A stretch of DNA of 64,000 nucleotides, taken from the sequence record LC739537.1. The stretch is one strand, 5' to 3'. Source of the stretch: Escherichia phage phiWec188. A program made the position numbers and the translations under genes. Below the pieces are notes generated by a model. That model was not told the DNA's origin, did not search any database, and saw only the letters and a program-made list of their open reading frames with translations. This document shows positions 1,273-12,155 of this stretch, piece after piece. Numbering within the stretch: the first letter of the stretch is position 1; each line of letters begins with the position of its first letter.

Positions 1273-1929
1273 ATGACTATTAAACATATCTCTTTTGATG
1301 TATGGAACACACTGATCACAGCAAACCCAAATTACGCGGATATGCGAGCTTGGACTATCGCAAAATACGGAGATATTTCGGAAGTAGAAGCAAGAGCAGC
1401 TTACAAGAAGATCAAAAAGGAACTGGATAATGCGGCACTTCAGGGAACAGCCGAGTGTGCAGCATATGCCTGGGAAAGACTTGGTTACGAACTTGGGATA
1501 ACACCTTTGAAGTCTGCAAAGCTTCGTTTCGAGTGTGAACAGTGGTTCCTTAAGTTTCCACCACATGTGGCTGTGGATTTACCGATGCACTTGCTGTATC
1601 TTTCGGGGCGTTATGATTTGAGCATCAAGAGTAATACCAACTTCATATCAGGGGATATCCTGCGCCGGGCTTGTAAGTTTGATGGTTGGAATTGTTTTGA
1701 GTTCACCCATTTCTCGGATGAAGCTTTACTTTGTAAACCAGATCCGCGATTCTTTGCTCGCACGCTGACGTATTCTCCCATCCCTTTGTTAGGGCACGAA
1801 GTATTGCACGTAGGCGATAGTGAAGAATATGATGGAAAATGTGTTGACTTAGGATTTAACTTCTGTCATATTAAGAACCCTAACGACTTGTTAGATAAAC
1901 TTGCTAAAGGAGAACTTGTTAATGCGTAA
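1273..1929 (+). CDS. HAD-superfamily-like hydrolase (putative)
   Basis: N-terminal FDVWNTL (degenerate HAD motif I) and C-terminal GDSEEYD (motif IV-like); translationally coupled to neighbours. Confidence 0.45.
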   Translation: MTIKHISFDVWNTLITANPNYADMRAWTIAKYGDISEVEARAAYKKIKKELDNAALQGTAECAAYAWERLGYELGITPLKSAKLRFECEQWFLKFPPHVAVDLPMHLLYLSGRYDLSIKSNTNFISGDILRRACKFDGWNCFEFTHFSDEALLCKPDPRFFARTLTYSPIPLLGHEVLHVGDSEEYDGKCVDLGFNFCHIKNPNDLLDKLAKGELVNA

Positions 1930-2749
1930 TCAAACTCAAATCTTTGCTCACAAATTTGATAGTCTGGAAACTGCTCGTTTTGATATTCGTGACTATTCCA
2001 AACTGAAGTTTGGCAGCAACCAGGCGGCACGCCGTATGGGGCAAACATTGGCAGTCTCTTTCTATGACTTGGTAGTCAAGAATATGCCGGAAGAAGAGTT
2101 TGTGGTGATTCCTTCACCTTACAACCATGTGCATAACGCAGCAACCATGATGACCAACCAGTTCATCAATTTCTTGAACCTGTTGCTGCTGAATCACAAA
2201 GGTAGTCGTGCAGTAGAGTTGGATACGATTCACCGTAAGGTAAGCTACATTAACGATTATGGTTTCCTGGACAAAGCAAGCCGTAAGAAACTGATTGATG
2301 GGGACACATTCTATTGCAACAAAGATTTTTGGGGCAACAAGAAGCTGATCTTCATTGATGATGTGAACATCACGGGGACTCATGAAGATAAACTGATTGA
2401 GATCCTGGATGAAAATAAAGTTACGAACGATGTTTACTTCCTGTACTTTGCCAAGTATACTGGTAATCAAGCAGACACAGAAGCTAAACTGAACTTCAAT
2501 TATATTAACACGACAGATGCTTTCGTTAATATGATCAACACCGAACAAGATGCACAGTGTTTGGTTCGTCCTATCAAGTATCTGATGGGGCAAGCACCGG
2601 AAGAGTTTAAAATCATTCTCTCCCGTCTGCCACACCGTTATGTAGAAGCACTGTTCTTTGGGTGTCTTGGGGAAGGTTATGACAAGATCGAGAAGTATTC
2701 TGAAAACTTCGTCTTCCTGAACCGTTACTTTAACCAACATATCCTGTAA
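1922..2749 (+). CDS. phosphoribosyltransferase (PRTase) domain protein
   Basis: PRPP-binding signature KLIFIDDVNITGTHEDKL; start moved to ATG 1922 preceded by AAGGAGAA RBS. Confidence 0.5.
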   Translation: MRNQTQIFAHKFDSLETARFDIRDYSKLKFGSNQAARRMGQTLAVSFYDLVVKNMPEEEFVVIPSPYNHVHNAATMMTNQFINFLNLLLLNHKGSRAVELDTIHRKVSYINDYGFLDKASRKKLIDGDTFYCNKDFWGNKKLIFIDDVNITGTHEDKLIEILDENKVTNDVYFLYFAKYTGNQADTEAKLNFNYINTTDAFVNMINTEQDAQCLVRPIKYLMGQAPEEFKIILSRLPHRYVEALFFGCLGEGYDKIEKYSENFVFLNRYFNQHIL

Positions 2750-2758
2750 GGAGGGAAA

Positions 2759-3232
2759 ATGTTGAAGGTTGTTACTGGTAATCTGATCGATGCAGCTAAG
2801 AGCGGGGAAGTGAACGTTATAGCCCACTGTTGTAACTGCATGTGTAATATGGGTAAAGGGATTGCTCCACAGATTAAAAAAGCATTTCCTTATGCATATG
2901 CAGCCGACTTGGACACAGCAGCAGGTGATCAAAGTAAACTGGGTTCTTTTAGTTTAGGGGTGCCAGAGAATTCCTCTGATCCTTTGGTGTATAACCTGTA
3001 CGGACAGTATCGTTACGGGTACAACGCTAAAGGTCGTCAGTTGGACTACGATGCTCTTTATGACGCACTGATAGCTATGGCTAATGATTTGCTCCTCCAG
3101 GCAAAAGGGCTTAAAATTGGTCTGCCTATGATCGGAGCAGGTTTTGCGGGAGGTAATTGGGCTATCATCGAAGTGATGATTGAAGAAACTTTAGTAAAAA
3201 CAGGTCACGATGTGACTATTTATAAACTTTAA
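2759..3232 (+). CDS. macro domain protein (ADP-ribose binding/processing)
   Basis: VNVIAHCCNCMCNMGKGIAPQI and IGLPMIGAGFAGG match the two conserved macro-domain glycine-rich loops; AAGGAGGG RBS. Confidence 0.65.
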   Translation: MLKVVTGNLIDAAKSGEVNVIAHCCNCMCNMGKGIAPQIKKAFPYAYAADLDTAAGDQSKLGSFSLGVPENSSDPLVYNLYGQYRYGYNAKGRQLDYDALYDALIAMANDLLLQAKGLKIGLPMIGAGFAGGNWAIIEVMIEETLVKTGHDVTIYKL

Positions 3233-3548: not shown

Positions 3549-4523
3549 ATGCAACTTGGTTTCCCCATTATTGATGTAGTGGTGTTGGTAGGTATTCTTG
3601 TTCTGTCCATCGGTATTGACTTTTTCGGGCATCGTGAGAACAAGGAAATCTCTTTCAAATCTGCTGTGGCTTGGTCAATCTTCTGGATTGGTGTGTCTTT
3701 AGCCTACTATGGTTTTGTATACTTCCAGCACGGCGCAGATTTTGCAAACTTGTTCTTGAGCGGGTATGTGTTAGAGAAGTCGCTCTCGGTAGATAACTTG
3801 GTAGTGTTTGTAGCAGTGTTCTCCAGTTTCGGGATTAAGAGCACACACTTACAACACAAAATTCTACTCTGGGGTATTGCAGGTGCGATTGTCTTCCGAG
3901 GTGTGTTTGTAGCAGCAGGGACTTATCTGCTAAGTATTGGATGGTATGTTAATATTTTCTTCGGTATTGTGATTCTTTTTTGTGCGGCGAAGATGTTGTT
4001 TAAACAAGACGATGACGCAGCAGTTGATTACTCTAAACATTGGGCTACCCGCGTCGTTCGTAAACTGTTCCCAGTATCGGATCAGATGGATGGTGAGAAG
4101 TTCTTCACGATTAAGAATGGTGTTCGTGTAGCAACTCCGGCTCTGGTTTGTGTGTTCGTGATGGAAATGGTAGATGTGATCTTTGCAGTAGACTCGGTTC
4201 CGGCTGTAATTGCAGTGACACAAGAACCACTGCTTGTATTCTCTTCGATGCTCTGTGCAATCTTAGGCTTACGTGCTCTGTTCTTTGTTCTTAGTGTGGC
4301 CCTGAAGTATCTGGTTCACCTGGAGAAAGCAGTTATCGCAGTCCTGGTGTTTGTTGGTGTGAAACTGATGTATCACCCGTTTGCAGAAACGCTGCACGCA
4401 AAAGTGAGCTTCCTGCCAGCGCATATTGACCCGACGATCAGCATGTATATCGTGCTTGGTACTCTGGCCCTGGGCGTGATTGCAAGTTTCATCTTCCCTG
4501 AAAAAGAAGAAGCTACCGCTTAA
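3549..4523 (+). CDS. terC: TerC-family integral membrane protein
   Basis: multi-pass hydrophobic protein with the TerC signature EKSLSVDNLVVFVAVF; RBS AAAGGAGAA. Confidence 0.8.
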   Translation: MQLGFPIIDVVVLVGILVLSIGIDFFGHRENKEISFKSAVAWSIFWIGVSLAYYGFVYFQHGADFANLFLSGYVLEKSLSVDNLVVFVAVFSSFGIKSTHLQHKILLWGIAGAIVFRGVFVAAGTYLLSIGWYVNIFFGIVILFCAAKMLFKQDDDAAVDYSKHWATRVVRKLFPVSDQMDGEKFFTIKNGVRVATPALVCVFVMEMVDVIFAVDSVPAVIAVTQEPLLVFSSMLCAILGLRALFFVLSVALKYLVHLEKAVIAVLVFVGVKLMYHPFAETLHAKVSFLPAHIDPTISMYIVLGTLALGVIASFIFPEKEEATA

Positions 4524-5173: not shown

Positions 5174-6040
5174 ATGAAAAATATTCAGCCATTACCTGTA
5201 GTTGGGGATTTGTATTTCTTATCTGGTACGGGTTATTCCCCAGAAGCATTAGAAGTTAACAAGAACGTCTTCCGAGTGAAAGAAATAAGAGAAGAATGTA
5301 ATGAAATTGTTTTCGAAGGTATTACTAACGGAGTTCTTCAGTATGCAGAGATGCGTAGCTGCTTCCAGCAACCTTTCCGCCCGTTGGCAGACGAGTATAA
5401 GATTGCGGTAAATATTGACGATCTTAAAAAATCTCCTTTGTTTGAAGGGTTCTCTGCTTTTATGGCAGATACTTATGTGGATGTAAAGAGATCTAACCTT
5501 TTCGCAGGGGATAATTTCCCTCACTTTGTAGCAGAGAAAAGTCATGGTTTTTCCGATTATGTGGATGCTGTAAACTATGATGTTTCTGAATTGACAGAAG
5601 AGCAGGATTATCTCCTGTTATCTCCTAAAGATTTCATGAGCGTAATGTATGCCGTAGCTGAACAGAAAAAGAAGAAAGAAGAACCTGTAGCCAAAGTTAA
5701 AAAGGTTAAAGGTAAACGTGCCAAAGGTATTCCAGAACGTAAGCGCACCGTAAATAAGGCGACAGTTTTCTTTACCAGCGGTGAGCAATATACGATCAAA
5801 GGTTTTAAAGAAGTGGGTTACACTGCTGGCGGAAACCTTATGTTCTTCACAGTTGCAGAAGAAGGAGAAACTTTTATCCGTTTTTCCAATATGTGGGAAA
5901 TGTCTGTAGAAGATATTAAAAGTGTTGTTGTTTTAGGTGTACATAAGAGTTTCATTATTAACCAAATCTCTGATTTCAGTGCACACTTGACAGCACCAGA
6001 TTTCGAAACTACCACAACAAGCTTTAACTTCAAGGTGTAA
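5174..6040 (+). CDS. hypothetical protein with lysine-rich central linker
   Basis: GAGGAGAA RBS; KKKKEEPVAKVKKVKGKRAKG basic stretch. Confidence 0.5.
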   Translation: MKNIQPLPVVGDLYFLSGTGYSPEALEVNKNVFRVKEIREECNEIVFEGITNGVLQYAEMRSCFQQPFRPLADEYKIAVNIDDLKKSPLFEGFSAFMADTYVDVKRSNLFAGDNFPHFVAEKSHGFSDYVDAVNYDVSELTEEQDYLLLSPKDFMSVMYAVAEQKKKKEEPVAKVKKVKGKRAKGIPERKRTVNKATVFFTSGEQYTIKGFKEVGYTAGGNLMFFTVAEEGETFIRFSNMWEMSVEDIKSVVVLGVHKSFIINQISDFSAHLTAPDFETTTTSFNFKV

Positions 6041-6043
6041 TGC

Positions 6044-6634
6044 ATGAATACCGAGAGAGATTTAAAACTCTTGTGGTGGGAAGTGATGCAGGAGATCAAG
6101 GAGGATTTCCCTGTTTACTACAACATGCTACGTGAAGCTGGATATACGGCTTGCGTTAGGAACAAAGTGAATAACTCTTTCGGTTGGTGCAACTACCGAG
6201 AAAAGATTGTTGTTGTGAATTGGCACTTGCATAAAAACTCCACAAGGGATATGATAGTGGACACAATGAAGCATGAAATTGCTCATGCTATTGATGGTTG
6301 TATGGGTAAGTTCAGTCGTCATGGACCACACTGGCAAAAACTGGCAGCAGAGTTGGGAGCCAATCCTAAAGCTACTTCCAAAGAACCGTTCAATCATGAA
6401 TACAAATATGTTCTTGTTTTGGTAGACAGATTTGCCACAAGATGTGTTAGAGGGTATAATCGTAAACCTAACCGTATGACCCCAGGGAAACAACCACATA
6501 TTTGGTTGAAGAGTGATAAAGAGGGGACAGAAGGAAAAATATGGTTGTATAAATGGGAAGATTGGGTTAAAGTAGCTAAAGAATATGGTGTTTCACCTTA
6601 CACAAGAGAAATAGAAGAGGAGAATGAAGAATGA
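6044..6634 (+). CDS. SprT-like zinc metallopeptidase domain protein
   Basis: HEIAHAI (HExxH) preceded by hydrophobic beta-strand region typical of SprT/Wss1-like fold. Confidence 0.55.
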   Translation: MNTERDLKLLWWEVMQEIKEDFPVYYNMLREAGYTACVRNKVNNSFGWCNYREKIVVVNWHLHKNSTRDMIVDTMKHEIAHAIDGCMGKFSRHGPHWQKLAAELGANPKATSKEPFNHEYKYVLVLVDRFATRCVRGYNRKPNRMTPGKQPHIWLKSDKEGTEGKIWLYKWEDWVKVAKEYGVSPYTREIEEENEE

Positions 6635-7743
6635 CAAGTCCATTTTTGAAAGCGGCAACTGGTGGTCAAAAGAAATCTGAAACGAGTGTACTGACTGCTA
6701 CTACAGACGCAAGCAAGTCCGTGTTCGCTCCGAGTGTCCTGGATGCAAGTCCGGTGTATGCTCCAGCAGCGCCAAAAGCTGTGCCTACCCTGCCAACAAT
6801 GTCTCGTAAAGAGATTGAAGAAGTAGGTGCAGAAGCAGGTTTAACTCTCCGTTCTCTGAATGCTGAAGTGCTGAAGCACCAACGTAGCAATCAAGGTGAC
6901 GAAATGAGTCAACGCCTTACAGCTTTGATTAAACAAGCCAAACAGCTTGATCCTGCCTCCATTAAGCAGAGTAAAGGTGTAGGTAAACTCATCAAGAAAC
7001 TGATGGGGATGAAAGAAGATCTCTTCGGTGAGTTCGATAACGTGAACAACCGTATCGAAGAACTCGTTAAGAATCTTCAAATGGATATCCGTAAAGAAGA
7101 AGATTCTCTGGTGTACCTGGATAAGCTGCACCAGGCGATCGGACAGTACGCCGCAAGCCTGAATCGTGATATGGAATTACTCACAGCAGCTTATGAGCAA
7201 GAACTGGCTACTTTTGAAGCCACACCAGAAGATGACGTAGAAGCCCGTCAACGCGTCCGTGACACGCTTGATCTCTTGGAGATACGTATTGCTGACTTGA
7301 AGGCATTACGCTTGCTGTGCGTGCAAATGGGACCGCGTGTATTGGGTATGCAGAAAGTATCTGCCAGCCTCATGCGTTCTGCTCGTAATATTGTGAACAA
7401 TGTGATTCCTGCTTACTCGGCAAACTTCTCAATGTATATTGAAAGTCTGCGCCAGAAGAAAGCAGCAGAAACACAGAACAACGTTCTGGACGAGTTCAAC
7501 CTGGCAATCAAACTGGGTAGCGATCTTGCCACACAGAATCAGATCGAAGCAGCAGCACTGGCTAACCGCCAAGTACTGGATATTGAAACCCTGCGTCACG
7601 ATCAGGAAAACTTGGTTAAGATGTTGGAAGAAACTAACCGCATCAATACGGAAGCCCGTGCTGCCCGTGTTGATTACATCAATGAAGTTCAATCTCTCGA
7701 AGATGGGATGGTTGACGCTGTTAAGAAGGGGCTTGGTAAATGA
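6631..7743 (+). CDS. alpha-helical protein, possible TelA-like (toxic anion resistance family)
   Basis: 370 aa, predicted helical/coiled-coil, size and context (adjacent to TerC/TerD genes) fit TelA; no diagnostic motif verified. Confidence 0.35.
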   Translation: MTSPFLKAATGGQKKSETSVLTATTDASKSVFAPSVLDASPVYAPAAPKAVPTLPTMSRKEIEEVGAEAGLTLRSLNAEVLKHQRSNQGDEMSQRLTALIKQAKQLDPASIKQSKGVGKLIKKLMGMKEDLFGEFDNVNNRIEELVKNLQMDIRKEEDSLVYLDKLHQAIGQYAASLNRDMELLTAAYEQELATFEATPEDDVEARQRVRDTLDLLEIRIADLKALRLLCVQMGPRVLGMQKVSASLMRSARNIVNNVIPAYSANFSMYIESLRQKKAAETQNNVLDEFNLAIKLGSDLATQNQIEAAALANRQVLDIETLRHDQENLVKMLEETNRINTEARAARVDYINEVQSLEDGMVDAVKKGLGK

Positions 7744-7934
7744 GAATCCGTGTCTATGTAGTTGAAGATTATTTTGGTGTACGCTATGACGAGGAACGTC
7801 GATTCGCACCTATGTGCAGCGTATATTCTCCAAGCGTCTTAGCAAGTTTACGGAAAGATTATTCTTATGAAGCTTGTAATAGTTTTGGTTTTGAGATTCT
7901 TTCAGACGTAGAATTTAATGAGGAGGAAGAATGA
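7740..7934 (+). CDS. hypothetical small protein
   Basis: overlapping start/stop coupling. Confidence 0.35.
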   Translation: MRIRVYVVEDYFGVRYDEERRFAPMCSVYSPSVLASLRKDYSYEACNSFGFEILSDVEFNEEEE

Positions 7935-8104
7935 AAACATTGCGTGTGAACATCGAAACTGCCTGGGCTGGATGTACCGAGGTTGTGGATATCGAAATTG
8001 AAGACGATATGTCTCAAGAAGATATCGAAGATCTTGCAAAAGAAACATTTCAGGATTATTGTAATTACGGGTTCCATATTTTAGGGGAGGAAGAAGATGA
8101 TTAA
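7931..8104 (+). CDS. hypothetical small acidic protein (57 aa, below ORF-track cutoff)
   Basis: GAGGAGGAAGA RBS then ATG 7931; translated by hand. Confidence 0.35.
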   Translation: MKTLRVNIETAWAGCTEVVDIEIEDDMSQEDIEDLAKETFQDYCNYGFHILGEEEDD

Positions 8105-8495
8105 CCACACAAACGTACATTTGAAATTAACGGTAACAGATCCGACTCTTTTCATCAATCTCACAAGCGGTGAAATTTACGAAGTTATCACAGACGAGGA
8201 TGGTTCTTGCTTCCTTAAAGGTTATTATCTCTGTGAATCTGATGAGTTGGTATCTATTATCACCTTGGGAGAATACGAAGAACCAGGTTTCCGTGTAGAG
8301 GTTGTTAAGAATCCTGATATTATCCAATTAACTCGACAAGAACTGATCACCATCATGGAAGATGCTTTTATCGATGGGTGGAAGACTCAAAACTATGATT
8401 GGAGTGGTCCAGAAGACTTCCTGCGTCTTCATAAAGAATATGACGAGTGTAGTGAGACTACTCTTGCCATTGATGATATTAAGGCAGGTCTGTAA
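8097..8495 (+). CDS. hypothetical protein
   Basis: coupled ORF. Confidence 0.45.
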   Translation: MINHTNVHLKLTVTDPTLFINLTSGEIYEVITDEDGSCFLKGYYLCESDELVSIITLGEYEEPGFRVEVVKNPDIIQLTRQELITIMEDAFIDGWKTQNYDWSGPEDFLRLHKEYDECSETTLAIDDIKAGL

Positions 8496-9064
8496 TGGGT
8501 TGCTTTAGTTTTCTGTGTAAGGAGTCGGGCAAAGCTGCCCTCTCCACATCTTTCGATGGTTCTCCTTGCTATCTTTTCCTGTTGAAAGATGGGAAGGTTA
8601 TTGAAGAGATGTATGGCAACTATGATAGTTATGGACGTGTCTTCAGCAGTAAGCAGGATGCTCACGGGAACAGAGAAAGCTTTAAATGGACTATGCCTTG
8701 GAGCGACGTTTGTGATCTTATGTTCTCTGTAAACCGTGGAGACGGTATTGCTATGGTTTTAGCAGAACACTTTACAGGAGAAGTCCCTACAAAGCGATCC
8801 GAGGACGATCCTAATCAAGGTTGGGGAGATGGAGAAGAAGAGGAAGAAGAGGATTATTTCTACAGTACCGAAAATAATATTTTCAAACGTGTTGACAATC
8901 CTTATCATAAAGTGCATAATGTCCTCATTGAAACAGAAGACGACAAAATGGGAATTGAAGAAGATGATCCTCTTGTAACACTGCCTACAAGCGAGTTACA
9001 AAAAATCATCAAAGAAGCTTACGATTTGGGCTTCAAAACTGGTAAAGGAGGAGGGAATGTTTGA
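8495..9064 (+). CDS. hypothetical protein with poly-Glu linker
   Basis: coupled ORF; GDGEEEEEED acidic tract. Confidence 0.45.
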   Translation: MGCFSFLCKESGKAALSTSFDGSPCYLFLLKDGKVIEEMYGNYDSYGRVFSSKQDAHGNRESFKWTMPWSDVCDLMFSVNRGDGIAMVLAEHFTGEVPTKRSEDDPNQGWGDGEEEEEEDYFYSTENNIFKRVDNPYHKVHNVLIETEDDKMGIEEDDPLVTLPTSELQKIIKEAYDLGFKTGKGGGNV

Positions 9065-9329
9065 TTTTAAAATAAAAGATTCAAAACCCCAAGATGTAGC
9101 ACTTCGTTTCGAAGAGTTGGGGATTGGTGAAACTTTCATGTATTATTCAGCATATGAAGAAAATGGTTTGGATACGTTTGCAAACTTAGTATTTATTAAA
9201 AGCGGCGGCGCGACTGCTGTTTGTTTGAATAGTTCATCAAGAGGGAGTGTCCATACCGTATCCCCAGATGTACCGATGGTTGCAGTTCGTTTAGTAGTTA
9301 CCGATATCACACTTACAGAGGAGAAATAA
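9057..9329 (+). CDS. hypothetical protein, paralog A (pairs with 10351-10632)
   Basis: shares KDSKP...SAYEENGLD motif with the 10351-10632 product; each precedes a TerD-type gene. Confidence 0.5.
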   Translation: MFDFKIKDSKPQDVALRFEELGIGETFMYYSAYEENGLDTFANLVFIKSGGATAVCLNSSSRGSVHTVSPDVPMVAVRLVVTDITLTEEK

Positions 9330-9330
9330 T

Positions 9331-10131
9331 ATGTCCAATAAAATTAGCCTGAAGAAACGCCAAGACACCCTGACCATTTCACTGAAGAAAAAGAAAATCG
9401 TCAACGAAGATCAAAAGATCGTTCTGCGTGTTGCAAGCGCACTGGATATCTCCGGTAGTATGTCCAGCTTGTATCGTAACGGCACCGTCAGTGATTTCGT
9501 AGGTAAGCTGCTGCCCTTCGGTATGATCTTTGACGATAATGCACAGATCGATATGTGGGCTTTCAACAATAGCTCTCGTGAAATCACTCCGGCAACTGCT
9601 GATGTGTATGATGATTACGTTGGTAAATGCATTAATGGTCGTGTAACAGTTCAGGGTGGTACAAGCTACGCCCCTGTTATGCAAGATATCTACGATTCTT
9701 ACTTCGGTAGCACTACCAAGTATGAAACTGTAGAAACTCAAGTAACGAAAGAAATCCCTAAGAAAGGTTTCTTCAACCGTCTGTTGGGTAAAACTGAAAC
9801 TGTAGAAGCTGTTGTAGAAAAAACTGTAGCCGTTGCTGTGCCTGGTGTAGACGTTACTCCGGCAGTTGTGTTCTTCCAGACAGATGGTGAGAACGATGAT
9901 CCGAGCCGTGTACTCTCCGTACTGGAAAAGAACAAGGGTAAACCTATCTACTGGTTCATGGTGGGTGTTGGTAGTGCTCGTTTCTCTTTCCTGAAAGATT
10001 TGGCTGAAGCTTACGACAACGTAGCATTCATTGGTCTGAACGATCTTTCCTTGACAGACGAGCAGCTTTACGATAAACTCTTGTCTGAAGAGTTCGGTGA
10101 GTGGGTCGAAAAGGTTGGTGCTAAGAAATGA
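9331..10131 (+). CDS. vWA domain protein with TerD-like N-terminal leader (TerY/TerF-like)
   Basis: N-terminal ISLKK repeats as in TerD; MIDAS-type DISGSM, GGTSYAP, FFQTDGENDD, MVGVG motifs of a von Willebrand A domain. Confidence 0.65.
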   Translation: MSNKISLKKRQDTLTISLKKKKIVNEDQKIVLRVASALDISGSMSSLYRNGTVSDFVGKLLPFGMIFDDNAQIDMWAFNNSSREITPATADVYDDYVGKCINGRVTVQGGTSYAPVMQDIYDSYFGSTTKYETVETQVTKEIPKKGFFNRLLGKTETVEAVVEKTVAVAVPGVDVTPAVVFFQTDGENDDPSRVLSVLEKNKGKPIYWFMVGVGSARFSFLKDLAEAYDNVAFIGLNDLSLTDEQLYDKLLSEEFGEWVEKVGAKK

Positions 10132-10370
10132 TCGATACGCTGATCTCTCAAACGGTGTTACAAGTGATGCGCGAGAGAGAAGCTTTCATCATGAAGGGTC
10201 TTAAAGATTACTTTGGGACTCTTTCTTTGGAAGAACTCAAGCTACGCGTTGAGATCCATCAGTATCCTTTTTATGAAGAATGGATTGACAAAGCAAATAA
10301 AGCTGTTATAATGCGTATCAACAAACCAGAAATCACGACAGGAGGACAAGATGTTAAATTTCGCTATTAA
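10128..10370 (+). CDS. hypothetical small protein
   Basis: coupled ORF. Confidence 0.4.
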   Translation: MIDTLISQTVLQVMREREAFIMKGLKDYFGTLSLEELKLRVEIHQYPFYEEWIDKANKAVIMRINKPEITTGGQDVKFRY

Positions 10371-10632
10371 GAAAGATAGCAAACCAGAGATTCAGACTTG
10401 TCGCATTGCAAATCTTACACATCGGGATTTGTTTGTTCTGAAAAGCGCCTACGATGAAGACGGTCTTGACCCAGAAGCAGTCATCGTTTATATGGTATTG
10501 CGGCGAGACGAAGACACCAAGCACCCATACAATGCGGTAGAAATGAATTACAATGCAATGTTGTGTTCAATACACCATACGGCAGAGTTGGTGCAGGTAG
10601 AGTTAACAGTTAACGAAATTAAACTTAAATAA
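10351..10632 (+). CDS. hypothetical protein, paralog B (pairs with 9057-9329)
   Basis: see paralog A. Confidence 0.5.
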   Translation: MLNFAIKKDSKPEIQTCRIANLTHRDLFVLKSAYDEDGLDPEAVIVYMVLRRDEDTKHPYNAVEMNYNAMLCSIHHTAELVQVELTVNEIKLK

Positions 10633-10647
10633 TAGAGGAGACATATA

Positions 10648-11250
10648 ATGAGCGATAAAATTTCCCTGAAAAAAGGTTCCACTGACAAGATTTCCCTGAA
10701 GAAAGTTGCTCCGGCACTGAAAGAACTGCGTCTGGAGTTCTCCTGGAAATCAAACTCTAAACTGGATTTGGATGTAAGCGCACTTGTATGCCGACACAAC
10801 GCTTCTGGCAACCCTGAAATGCTGTCTGCACGTCATCTGGTTTGTTATGCTAACAAGTTTGATCCAGAACGTTCTGTATTCGCAGGTGATGATGTTCGTG
10901 ATGGTACTGGTCAAATGGAACAGATTGATGTAACCTTAGCTAAGATCTCCGATAAAGCCGAAGAGATTGCTTTTGTCCTGACTATTGATGATGAAACGGG
11001 CCAGAAACGTCTGGGCCATGCTACTGAAGGTATGCTGAAGATTTTTGATGCCGAGCGTAACGTTGAGATCCTGGACTTCGACTTCCTGGCTCCTGAAGTA
11101 GCTGGTAACACGATCTGCCACGTAGCTTCCTTGGTTCGTGAAGACGGTGAATGGAAACTGAAAGCTTACGGTGTTGGTAAAGCAGGTATGGATATCTGTG
11201 ATGTGGTTATGGCCTTCGGTGGTCAGAAAGAATGGTATGATTGCCCGTAA
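10648..11250 (+). CDS. terD: TerD-family protein
   Basis: ISLKKG..ISLKKVAP, DLDVSAL, GDDVRDGTG, FVLTIDD and GEWKLKAYG motifs line up with E. coli TerD. Confidence 0.85.
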   Translation: MSDKISLKKGSTDKISLKKVAPALKELRLEFSWKSNSKLDLDVSALVCRHNASGNPEMLSARHLVCYANKFDPERSVFAGDDVRDGTGQMEQIDVTLAKISDKAEEIAFVLTIDDETGQKRLGHATEGMLKIFDAERNVEILDFDFLAPEVAGNTICHVASLVREDGEWKLKAYGVGKAGMDICDVVMAFGGQKEWYDCP

Positions 11251-11270
11251 GATTTAACTGAAATGTTGTT

Positions 11271-11286
11271 GGGGGAGAAATCCCCC
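11271..11286 (+). other. GC hairpin with GNRA loop (GGGGGA-GAAA-TCCCCC) after terD
   Basis: perfect 6-bp stem; no U-run, so possibly RNA processing/attenuation site rather than terminator. Confidence 0.35.
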
Positions 11287-11287
11287 A

Positions 11288-11316
11288 TTGCAAAAACGCC
11301 TCTCATGTGTTATACT
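11288..11316 (+). promoter_or_regulatory. sigma70 promoter candidate with extended -10 (TTGCAA -35, 17-nt spacer, TGtTATACT)
   Basis: TG dinucleotide one base upstream of TATACT; good spacing; upstream of hydrolase gene. Confidence 0.5.
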
Positions 11317-11347
11317 GGTAGTTCATTCACCCAAAAGGAGGCAAAAT

Positions 11348-11869
11348 TTGCTGATAAAAAACTTTGTAACAGTTGCGTTACTATCCTTAACTGCTTTTAC
11401 ATTTACACCTGTCACGGCAACCGCCGAAGCTGCAAACGTAAAGACTGCTAAAGTAGTTCACAAATGTGCAAAGCAAGATACTAAAGAAAATCTCTTAGCT
11501 TGTGCAATTTACGCTGAAAGTCGTAATCAGGGTAAACGTGGAATGTATGCTGTAGGTAACGTAGTATTGAACAGGAAAGGTGATGATTACTTCCCTGACA
11601 ATATTAAAGATATTCTCTTCCAACGGGGACAATTCTCTTACAGGAAGAAGTTTAACGTTACTGAAGCAGAGCGATGGAAAGAAGCTAAAGCTATCGCAAA
11701 ACGACTTATATACCTGGATACAAACTTCCCTACACTTAGAGAAGCCCAGGACATGACAAAAGGTGCGACATTTTTTAAGAAAGTAAAAACCCGTGCACAC
11801 TGGACAAAAGATATGGTCTTAGTGTATCGTTATAAAGAACATCAGTTCTACTCACCGACAAGGAGCTAA
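11348..11869 (+). CDS. SleB-type cell-wall hydrolase with N-terminal signal peptide (endolysin candidate)
   Basis: TTG start 7 nt after AAGGAGG; LIKNFVTVALLSLTAFTFTPVTATAEA signal-like leader; AIYAESRNQ...GMYAVGNVVLNR hydrolase motifs. Confidence 0.6.
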   Translation: MLIKNFVTVALLSLTAFTFTPVTATAEAANVKTAKVVHKCAKQDTKENLLACAIYAESRNQGKRGMYAVGNVVLNRKGDDYFPDNIKDILFQRGQFSYRKKFNVTEAERWKEAKAIAKRLIYLDTNFPTLREAQDMTKGATFFKKVKTRAHWTKDMVLVYRYKEHQFYSPTRS

Positions 11870-11870
11870 T

Positions 11871-12155
11871 ATGCGAGAAGATAATACTGTTGTTGTTGCG
11901 AGCTATCTCGTTATCGGTTTAACCGAAGAAGATGTGTACTACATTCGTAAAGGTTTGGAAGCTTACGCTACCCTCTTCATGGAAGACGAAAGCGATGTTG
12001 ATAAATATTCCGTGGAGTTGCTCAACGACAGTATTTATCCTTGCATAGCTCTTAAAGTAGATGCTGTTCTGTGGGAGCGTTTTGCAAGAAGTCACGATGC
12101 TGTTGAATCTTCAATGGTTATGGCACAAAACAACATTTTAGGAGTGATTCACTAA
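11871..12155 (+). CDS. hypothetical protein
   Basis: coupled ORF. Confidence 0.45.
   Translation: MREDNTVVVASYLVIGLTEEDVYYIRKGLEAYATLFMEDESDVDKYSVELLNDSIYPCIALKVDAVLWERFARSHDAVESSMVMAQNNILGVIH

Follow-up and report, generated by a model that had tools for sequence, protein, structure and literature searches.

What do two similar small genes contribute to the tellurite-resistance-type (Ter) region of Escherichia phage phiWec188, and did they arise by duplication of a two-gene unit, as the original prediction proposed? The window analysed here, a stretch of 64,000 nucleotides of this genome (LC739537.1), carries small gene 1 (s1) next to a gene for a vWA-TerF-like protein, and small gene 2 (s2) next to a gene for a TerD-domain protein; the genes under study are all on the + strand and are tightly packed (Table 1). 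We find that s1 and s2 are paralogs, and that the small gene alone, not a two-gene unit, was duplicated or moved within the module. The small family may contribute an accessory component to the vWA-TerF/TerD part of a Ter stress-response cluster carried by the phage.

The paralogy of s1 and s2 is well founded. A BLASTP alignment of the two proteins has 31/95 identities (33%, E=1e-9) and spans their whole length, in sequence that is not low-complexity, and both match the profile of phrog_11278, a family with no assigned function (s1, 1.3e-28, residues 1–90; s2, 7.4e-15, residues 1–93). The ratio of nonsynonymous to synonymous substitution rates (dN/dS) is 0.08–0.12 for both genes against close relatives, and they are therefore real coding genes under purifying selection. 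An AlphaFold model of s1, made with an alignment of 21 family members (predicted local distance difference test, pLDDT, 81.6), has five short strands in a small SH3-like barrel. The BFVD model of an 89-aa protein of phage phAPEC8, taken as the s2 ortholog on its length and 32% identity, superposes on the s1 model with a template modelling (TM) score of 0.78, and the two paralogs have the same predicted fold. In predicted topology, the five-stranded barrel is like small SH3-like barrels such as the C-terminal domains of L2 and of DtxR/IdeR, FeoA, Tudor and KOW; by sequence, no match to the small family was found in Pfam, PADLOC or PDB. The family comprises acidic proteins of about 90 aa, predicted to be SH3-like beta-barrels, and is confined to Stephanstirmvirinae-like phages. 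At the 3' end of s1, the codons of the C-terminal EEK (9317–9329; GAGGAGAAA) double as the ribosome-binding site of the vWA gene. This EEK tail marks the s1-type copies and is absent from copies upstream of TerD.

Barrels that bind RNA or DNA (L2, KOW, Tudor) belong to this predicted fold class, and each copy lies immediately upstream of, and coupled to, one potential target gene. The small proteins could thus be nucleic acid-binding regulators of the translation or transcription of the gene downstream, but we consider this highly unlikely, and favor an association with the Ter proteins themselves.

Each small gene directly precedes a gene whose product starts with MSxKISLKK, as had been noted: the s1 stop codon at 9329 is followed by the vWA ATG at 9331, and the s2 stop codon at 10632 by the TerD ATG at 10648. 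The two downstream genes are nonetheless members of different families, and the proposed tandem duplication of two-gene units does not fit them. The product of 9331–10131 matches the vWA-TerF-like family PF10138 (2.5e-37; 129.4 bits against a cutoff of 29.4) and VWA (PF00092), and these are its only Pfam matches, with none to TerD. Residues 1–39 have no TerD match even at E<=10, although the same span of the real TerD does match, and the protein has 266 aa where real TerD+vWA fusions have 423–449 aa. Its leader is basic (KISLKK...ISLKK) and residues 7–20 are helical in the model. The protein is therefore a stand-alone vWA with a short leader, and not the vWA-TerD fusion it had been called. The product of 10648–11250 is a TerD protein proper (PF02342, 2.1e-29; 102.8 bits against a cutoff of 25.3), in which residues 5–180 correspond to profile positions 3–178, and its ISLKK...ISLKK start falls inside the TerD domain match.

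The similarity at these two starts speaks for a duplicated unit, with one of its second genes diverging into a vWA-TerD fusion. A 41-nt stretch at both junctions, covering the Shine-Dalgarno sequence, the start codon and the first nine codons, is 78% identical, and alignment of the two N-termini confirms a shared leader (14/20 identical residues) but reveals nothing in common beyond residue 20. The same leader is found well outside this locus. The N-terminal consensus MxxKISLxKxxExxxISLKK is present in 51 phage and bacterial vWA-TerF-like homologs, with K20 invariant and L7, K9 and L18 nearly so, and the leader is a family-wide feature of vWA-TerF-like proteins. TerF of terZABCDEF, in which TerD is followed by a C-terminal vWA, has the same PF10138 type of vWA, and in true TerD+vWA fusions (P0142, P0143 and P0145) the linker that runs up to the vWA core contains these SLxK repeats too; the phage protein differs in having no TerD domain. 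The leader serine codons also differ between the two junctions (AGC and TCC), which fits constraint on the peptide and the Shine-Dalgarno sequence better than recent copying.

The two pairs are also not adjoining. An 80-aa open reading frame (ORF) that had been overlooked lies between s1-vWA and s2-TerD and overlaps s2 by 20 nt; its dN/dS is 0.02–0.3, and it is unrelated to the small family. Nor does it resemble the 189-aa ORF that precedes s1, and we rejected a duplication extending to that upstream gene. Among the loci examined, the 80-aa ORF is confined to those of the two-copy, Phapecoctavirus type.

Comparison with related phages indicates what was duplicated. Region 6000–12000 of the window is 100% identical to Escherichia phage phiWec190 (LC739539.1; Phapecoctavirus, Stephanstirmvirinae), and a related region is present in about 129 phage records. 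The order small-vWA-x80-small-TerD, where x80 is the 80-aa ORF, is seen in the Phapecoctavirus-type loci (the window, UP17 and two metagenomic contigs). Phage phi92 (Justusliebigvirus) and Klebsiella phage 05F01 have a single small gene in the order small-vWA-TerD, with nothing between vWA and TerD, and the leader is already present on both of their downstream proteins. More distant metagenomic phages have vWA-small-TerD (L005, L006, L011 and L015), and others have vWA-small-small-TerD (L012–L014). All of the loci compared share the wider order TelA...vWA...TerD...cell-wall hydrolase, and these phages are therefore related. Because single-copy relatives already carry both leaders, the duplication involved the small gene alone, and we regard duplication of a two-gene unit as contradicted and very improbable. 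In a neighbor-joining tree the s1-type copies form one clade (92% bootstrap); the tree does not resolve the deeper branching, and s1 and s2 are as far apart as the phage lineages are from one another. Gain of a copy in Phapecoctavirus and loss of one in phi92 and 05F01 cannot be told apart from this tree and its bit-score matrix.

Although the paired duplication falls away, a paired organization of another kind is predicted from promoter candidates, identified as matches to a consensus rather than by transcript mapping. Within the 80-aa ORF, 39 nt upstream of s2, is a perfect sigma-70 consensus promoter with an extended -10, the sole perfect match in the window, where 0.06 are expected. The site is retained at the equivalent position of divergent loci (L002, L009 and L010), among Phapecoctavirus loci with only about 68% identity in the 80-aa ORF. 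The second candidate, an 11/12 match, is about 140 nt upstream of s1, and the same 11/12 site is at the equivalent place in phi92 (L003 4827–4855). In phiWec179 the 189-aa ORF is cleanly missing, leaving a 70-nt gap (L023 2705–2775) with a promoter-like site, read by eye as TTGACA-17-GATAAT, directly upstream of its s1. Given these sites, the locus looks like promoter-s1-vWA followed by promoter-s2-TerD, and a separate sigma-70-like promoter appears to serve each pair of small gene and Ter gene. Phages phiWec181 and phiWec186 probably also lack the 189-aa ORF, judging from the 91% coverage they share, and in the 55-aa metagenomic protein P0023 the N-terminus of the 189-aa ORF is joined to a small-protein C-terminus, a chimera that represents another deletion variant.

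Recovery of the small family required alignment-based and exhaustive profile searches. A single-sequence search of a set of 5.8 billion proteins gave one near-identical match only, and a related-locus search of IMG/VR with a family alignment gave only three loci. A hidden Markov model (HMM) search of 1.84 billion representative proteins gave about 17 credible full-length matches, all of 87–93 aa, and otherwise three short fragments and six long multi-stretch proteins, one of which was checked and is an FN3 repeat protein. Combined with an earlier alignment-based search, about 30 clusters of the small family are known. In the phage-genome collection s1 matches 126 records and s2 matches 71, essentially all of them of the Stephanstirmvirinae type and mostly Escherichia phages, and vWA-TerF homologs are found in 183 phage records, including Caulobacter, Rhizobium and Acinetobacter phages.

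Every small-family context examined adjoins vWA-TerF and/or TerD in Stephanstirmvirinae-like phages, circumstantial evidence that makes a partnership of the small proteins with Ter proteins plausible. In Phapecoctavirus, s1 would be made with vWA and s2 with TerD, each from a host-type promoter, and the small proteins would act as adaptor or regulatory subunits by binding to vWA, TerD or both. Our best reading, held at about even odds, is that the vWA/TerD module has the small proteins as accessory or adaptor subunits, made together with it.

Several observations weigh against such a role. The carriers are all syntenic relatives, so that the constant neighborhood may reflect shared descent, not function. 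In the phage-genome collection, tblastn found no small-family match in 52 records with more divergent vWA-TerF homologs, and the family is therefore dispensable for vWA/TerD function. More distant phages with the same vWA-TerD-hydrolase block have unrelated ORFs of 55–69 aa in the same slot; we rejected these as diverged members of the family (hmmsearch E>0.2; helical by eye). The small proteins of phiWec190 and UP17 share 53% and 44% identity, compared with 91% for TerD, 90% for TelA and 74% for vWA, and this divergence is more rapid than would be expected if they were tight partners of such conserved proteins. Lastly, the Asp of an exposed G-L-D loop is mostly conserved in the small family but is not invariant.

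The rapid divergence, with a dN of 0.40–0.52 for the small proteins versus 0.05 for TerD, is the main argument for regarding them as fast-evolving accessory proteins, for example in host takeover or anti-defence, which have no functional tie to Ter and keep their slot by block inheritance. The restriction to one phage lineage, the replacement by unrelated small ORFs in more distant phages and the lack of database matches noted above also speak for this reading. Block inheritance does not so readily explain why the small gene has been duplicated or relocated at least twice, each time staying between or beside vWA and TerD, why it is tightly coupled to both genes, or why it persists in phiWec179 where the upstream gene is deleted. 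We consider independent accessory genes possible but rather unlikely, and retain the view of the small proteins as candidate subunits of the vWA/TerD module.

How such subunits might act is suggested by the vWA protein. Its metal ion-dependent adhesion site (MIDAS) motif is intact, with D39-x-S41-x-S43, T111 and D185 all invariant in the 51 homologs, and its model (pLDDT 92.7) folds like integrin I-domains, CMG2 and MDN1-MIDAS. In other MIDAS domains the metal site takes acidic residues of protein ligands, and the pairs MDN1-MIDAS with the NLE1 ubiquitin-like (UBL) domain, integrin I-domains with their ligands, and CMG2 with anthrax protective antigen resemble the phage proteins in the vWA fold, the full set of MIDAS residues and, in the small proteins, a mostly conserved loop Asp. 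With its MIDAS residues invariant and its fold like that of MIDAS domains with protein ligands, the vWA protein might be offered the G-L-D loop Asp at its metal site; for the phage vWA and small protein this is purely an analogy, and we think it unlikely. Equally speculative is a fuller version in which the small proteins are rapidly evolving, phage-specific plug-in subunits that place the Asp in the MIDAS, the complex then recruiting or gating TerD, and the two copies giving Phapecoctavirus two differently tuned assemblies, of which one would be expressed with vWA and the other with TerD. If true, a Ter-system vWA domain would have its first candidate protein ligand, and there would be a means of studying how the Ter module is switched. 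The small family, being small, soluble-looking and non-essential, could offer a convenient experimental entry point in the search for binding partners of the vWA MIDAS or of TerD; if there is no interaction, it is simply a further phage ORF family, specific to one lineage, in which a gene was duplicated locally. The vWA model also has an insertion in the form of a long two-stranded beta-arm (strands 128–143 and 155–170), and by eye this arm (residues 128–170) matches a region of variable length among homologs.

Ter clusters occur widely, in bacteria and plasmids as well as in large phages, and to our knowledge the joint working of TerD, TerF-type vWA and TelA is still not understood. Abbreviated phage-borne versions were reportedly described by Anantharaman, Iyer and Aravind in 2012, with TerC, TelA, vWA-TerF and TerD, and with or without PRTase and HAD. 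The window has TerC, TelA, TerD and vWA-TerF co-located, plus PRTase_3 and a weak HAD-like match (Table 1), and thus has the components of a Ter system. The available text of Iyer et al. 2021 (PMC7824862) describes abbreviated phage-borne Ter systems, and that of a report on Klebsiella phage phiKp34 (PMC8386662) notes one in that phage; roles in superinfection exclusion or stress tolerance are proposed in these texts (PMC7824862; PMC8386662). The HAD-like, PRTase_3, TerC, TelA, vWA-TerF-like and TerD genes of the window, all on one strand, correspond to the component list given there (PMC7824862). The locus differs in having one or two small beta-barrel genes interleaved with vWA and TerD, of which the available text of the two papers makes no mention (PMC7824862; PMC8386662), and in also having Macro/DarG-like and SprT-like genes. 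The small family is a lineage-specific addition to an already known kind of phage system.

Table 1. Genes and promoter candidates of the Ter region in the phiWec188 window.
Feature	Position	Strand	Properties
HAD-like hydrolase	1273–1929	+	weak Pfam match (1.5e-4), below cutoff
PRTase_3	1901–2749	+	Pfam 5.3e-41
Macro/DarG-like	2759–3232	+	Macro domain; PADLOC DarG profile 4.4e-12
TerC	3549–4523	+	Pfam 1.7e-39
SprT-like	6044–6634	+	
TelA	6631–7743	+	Pfam 1.1e-34
189-aa ORF	8495–9064	+	phrog_14928; upstream of s1
Sigma-70-like promoter candidate	8892–8920	+	TTGACA-17-CATAAT, 11/12; ~140 nt upstream of s1
Small gene 1 (s1)	9057–9329	+	90 aa; acidic, isoelectric point (pI) 4.6; SH3-like beta-barrel (predicted); phrog_11278
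vWA-TerF-like protein, stand-alone	9331–10131	+	266 aa; Pfam PF10138
80-aa ORF	10128–10370	+	phrog_22387
Sigma-70 consensus promoter candidate, perfect match	10285–10312	+	TTGACA-16-TG-TATAAT, extended -10; inside 80-aa ORF, 39 nt upstream of s2
Small gene 2 (s2)	10351–10632	+	93 aa; pI 5.5; s1 paralog; phrog_11278
TerD-domain protein	10648–11250	+	200 aa; Pfam PF02342

Some features of the neighboring genes and of the phage records are noted briefly. The products of 8097–8495 (132 aa) and 8495–9064 (189 aa) end alike by eye, in (L)xxxELxxIxE(D/E)A(F/Y)xxG(W/F)K, and the same C-terminal motif is visible in phi92 gp176 and in a 64-aa ORF of 05F01; the similarity between the 132-aa and 189-aa products is not significant in BLASTP. 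The record OR584014.1 (L024) bears the name 'Pseudomonas phage PsgM04F' and matches this coliphage over the region at 96% identity. Several phage records labelled 'Campylobacter', 'Acinetobacter' and 'Klebsiella' likewise resemble Phapecoctavirus or Justusliebigvirus; the host labels of such records may be unreliable. With PADLOC profiles the small proteins, vWA, TerD and TelA have no match at E<=0.01, and the matches are confined to the Macro protein (DarG) and, weakly, the PRTase. The Macro protein gene adjoins those for PRTase_3 and the HAD-like hydrolase, and its product could belong to a Ter nucleotide-metabolite module, or could serve the phage against ADP-ribosylation of the DarT type.

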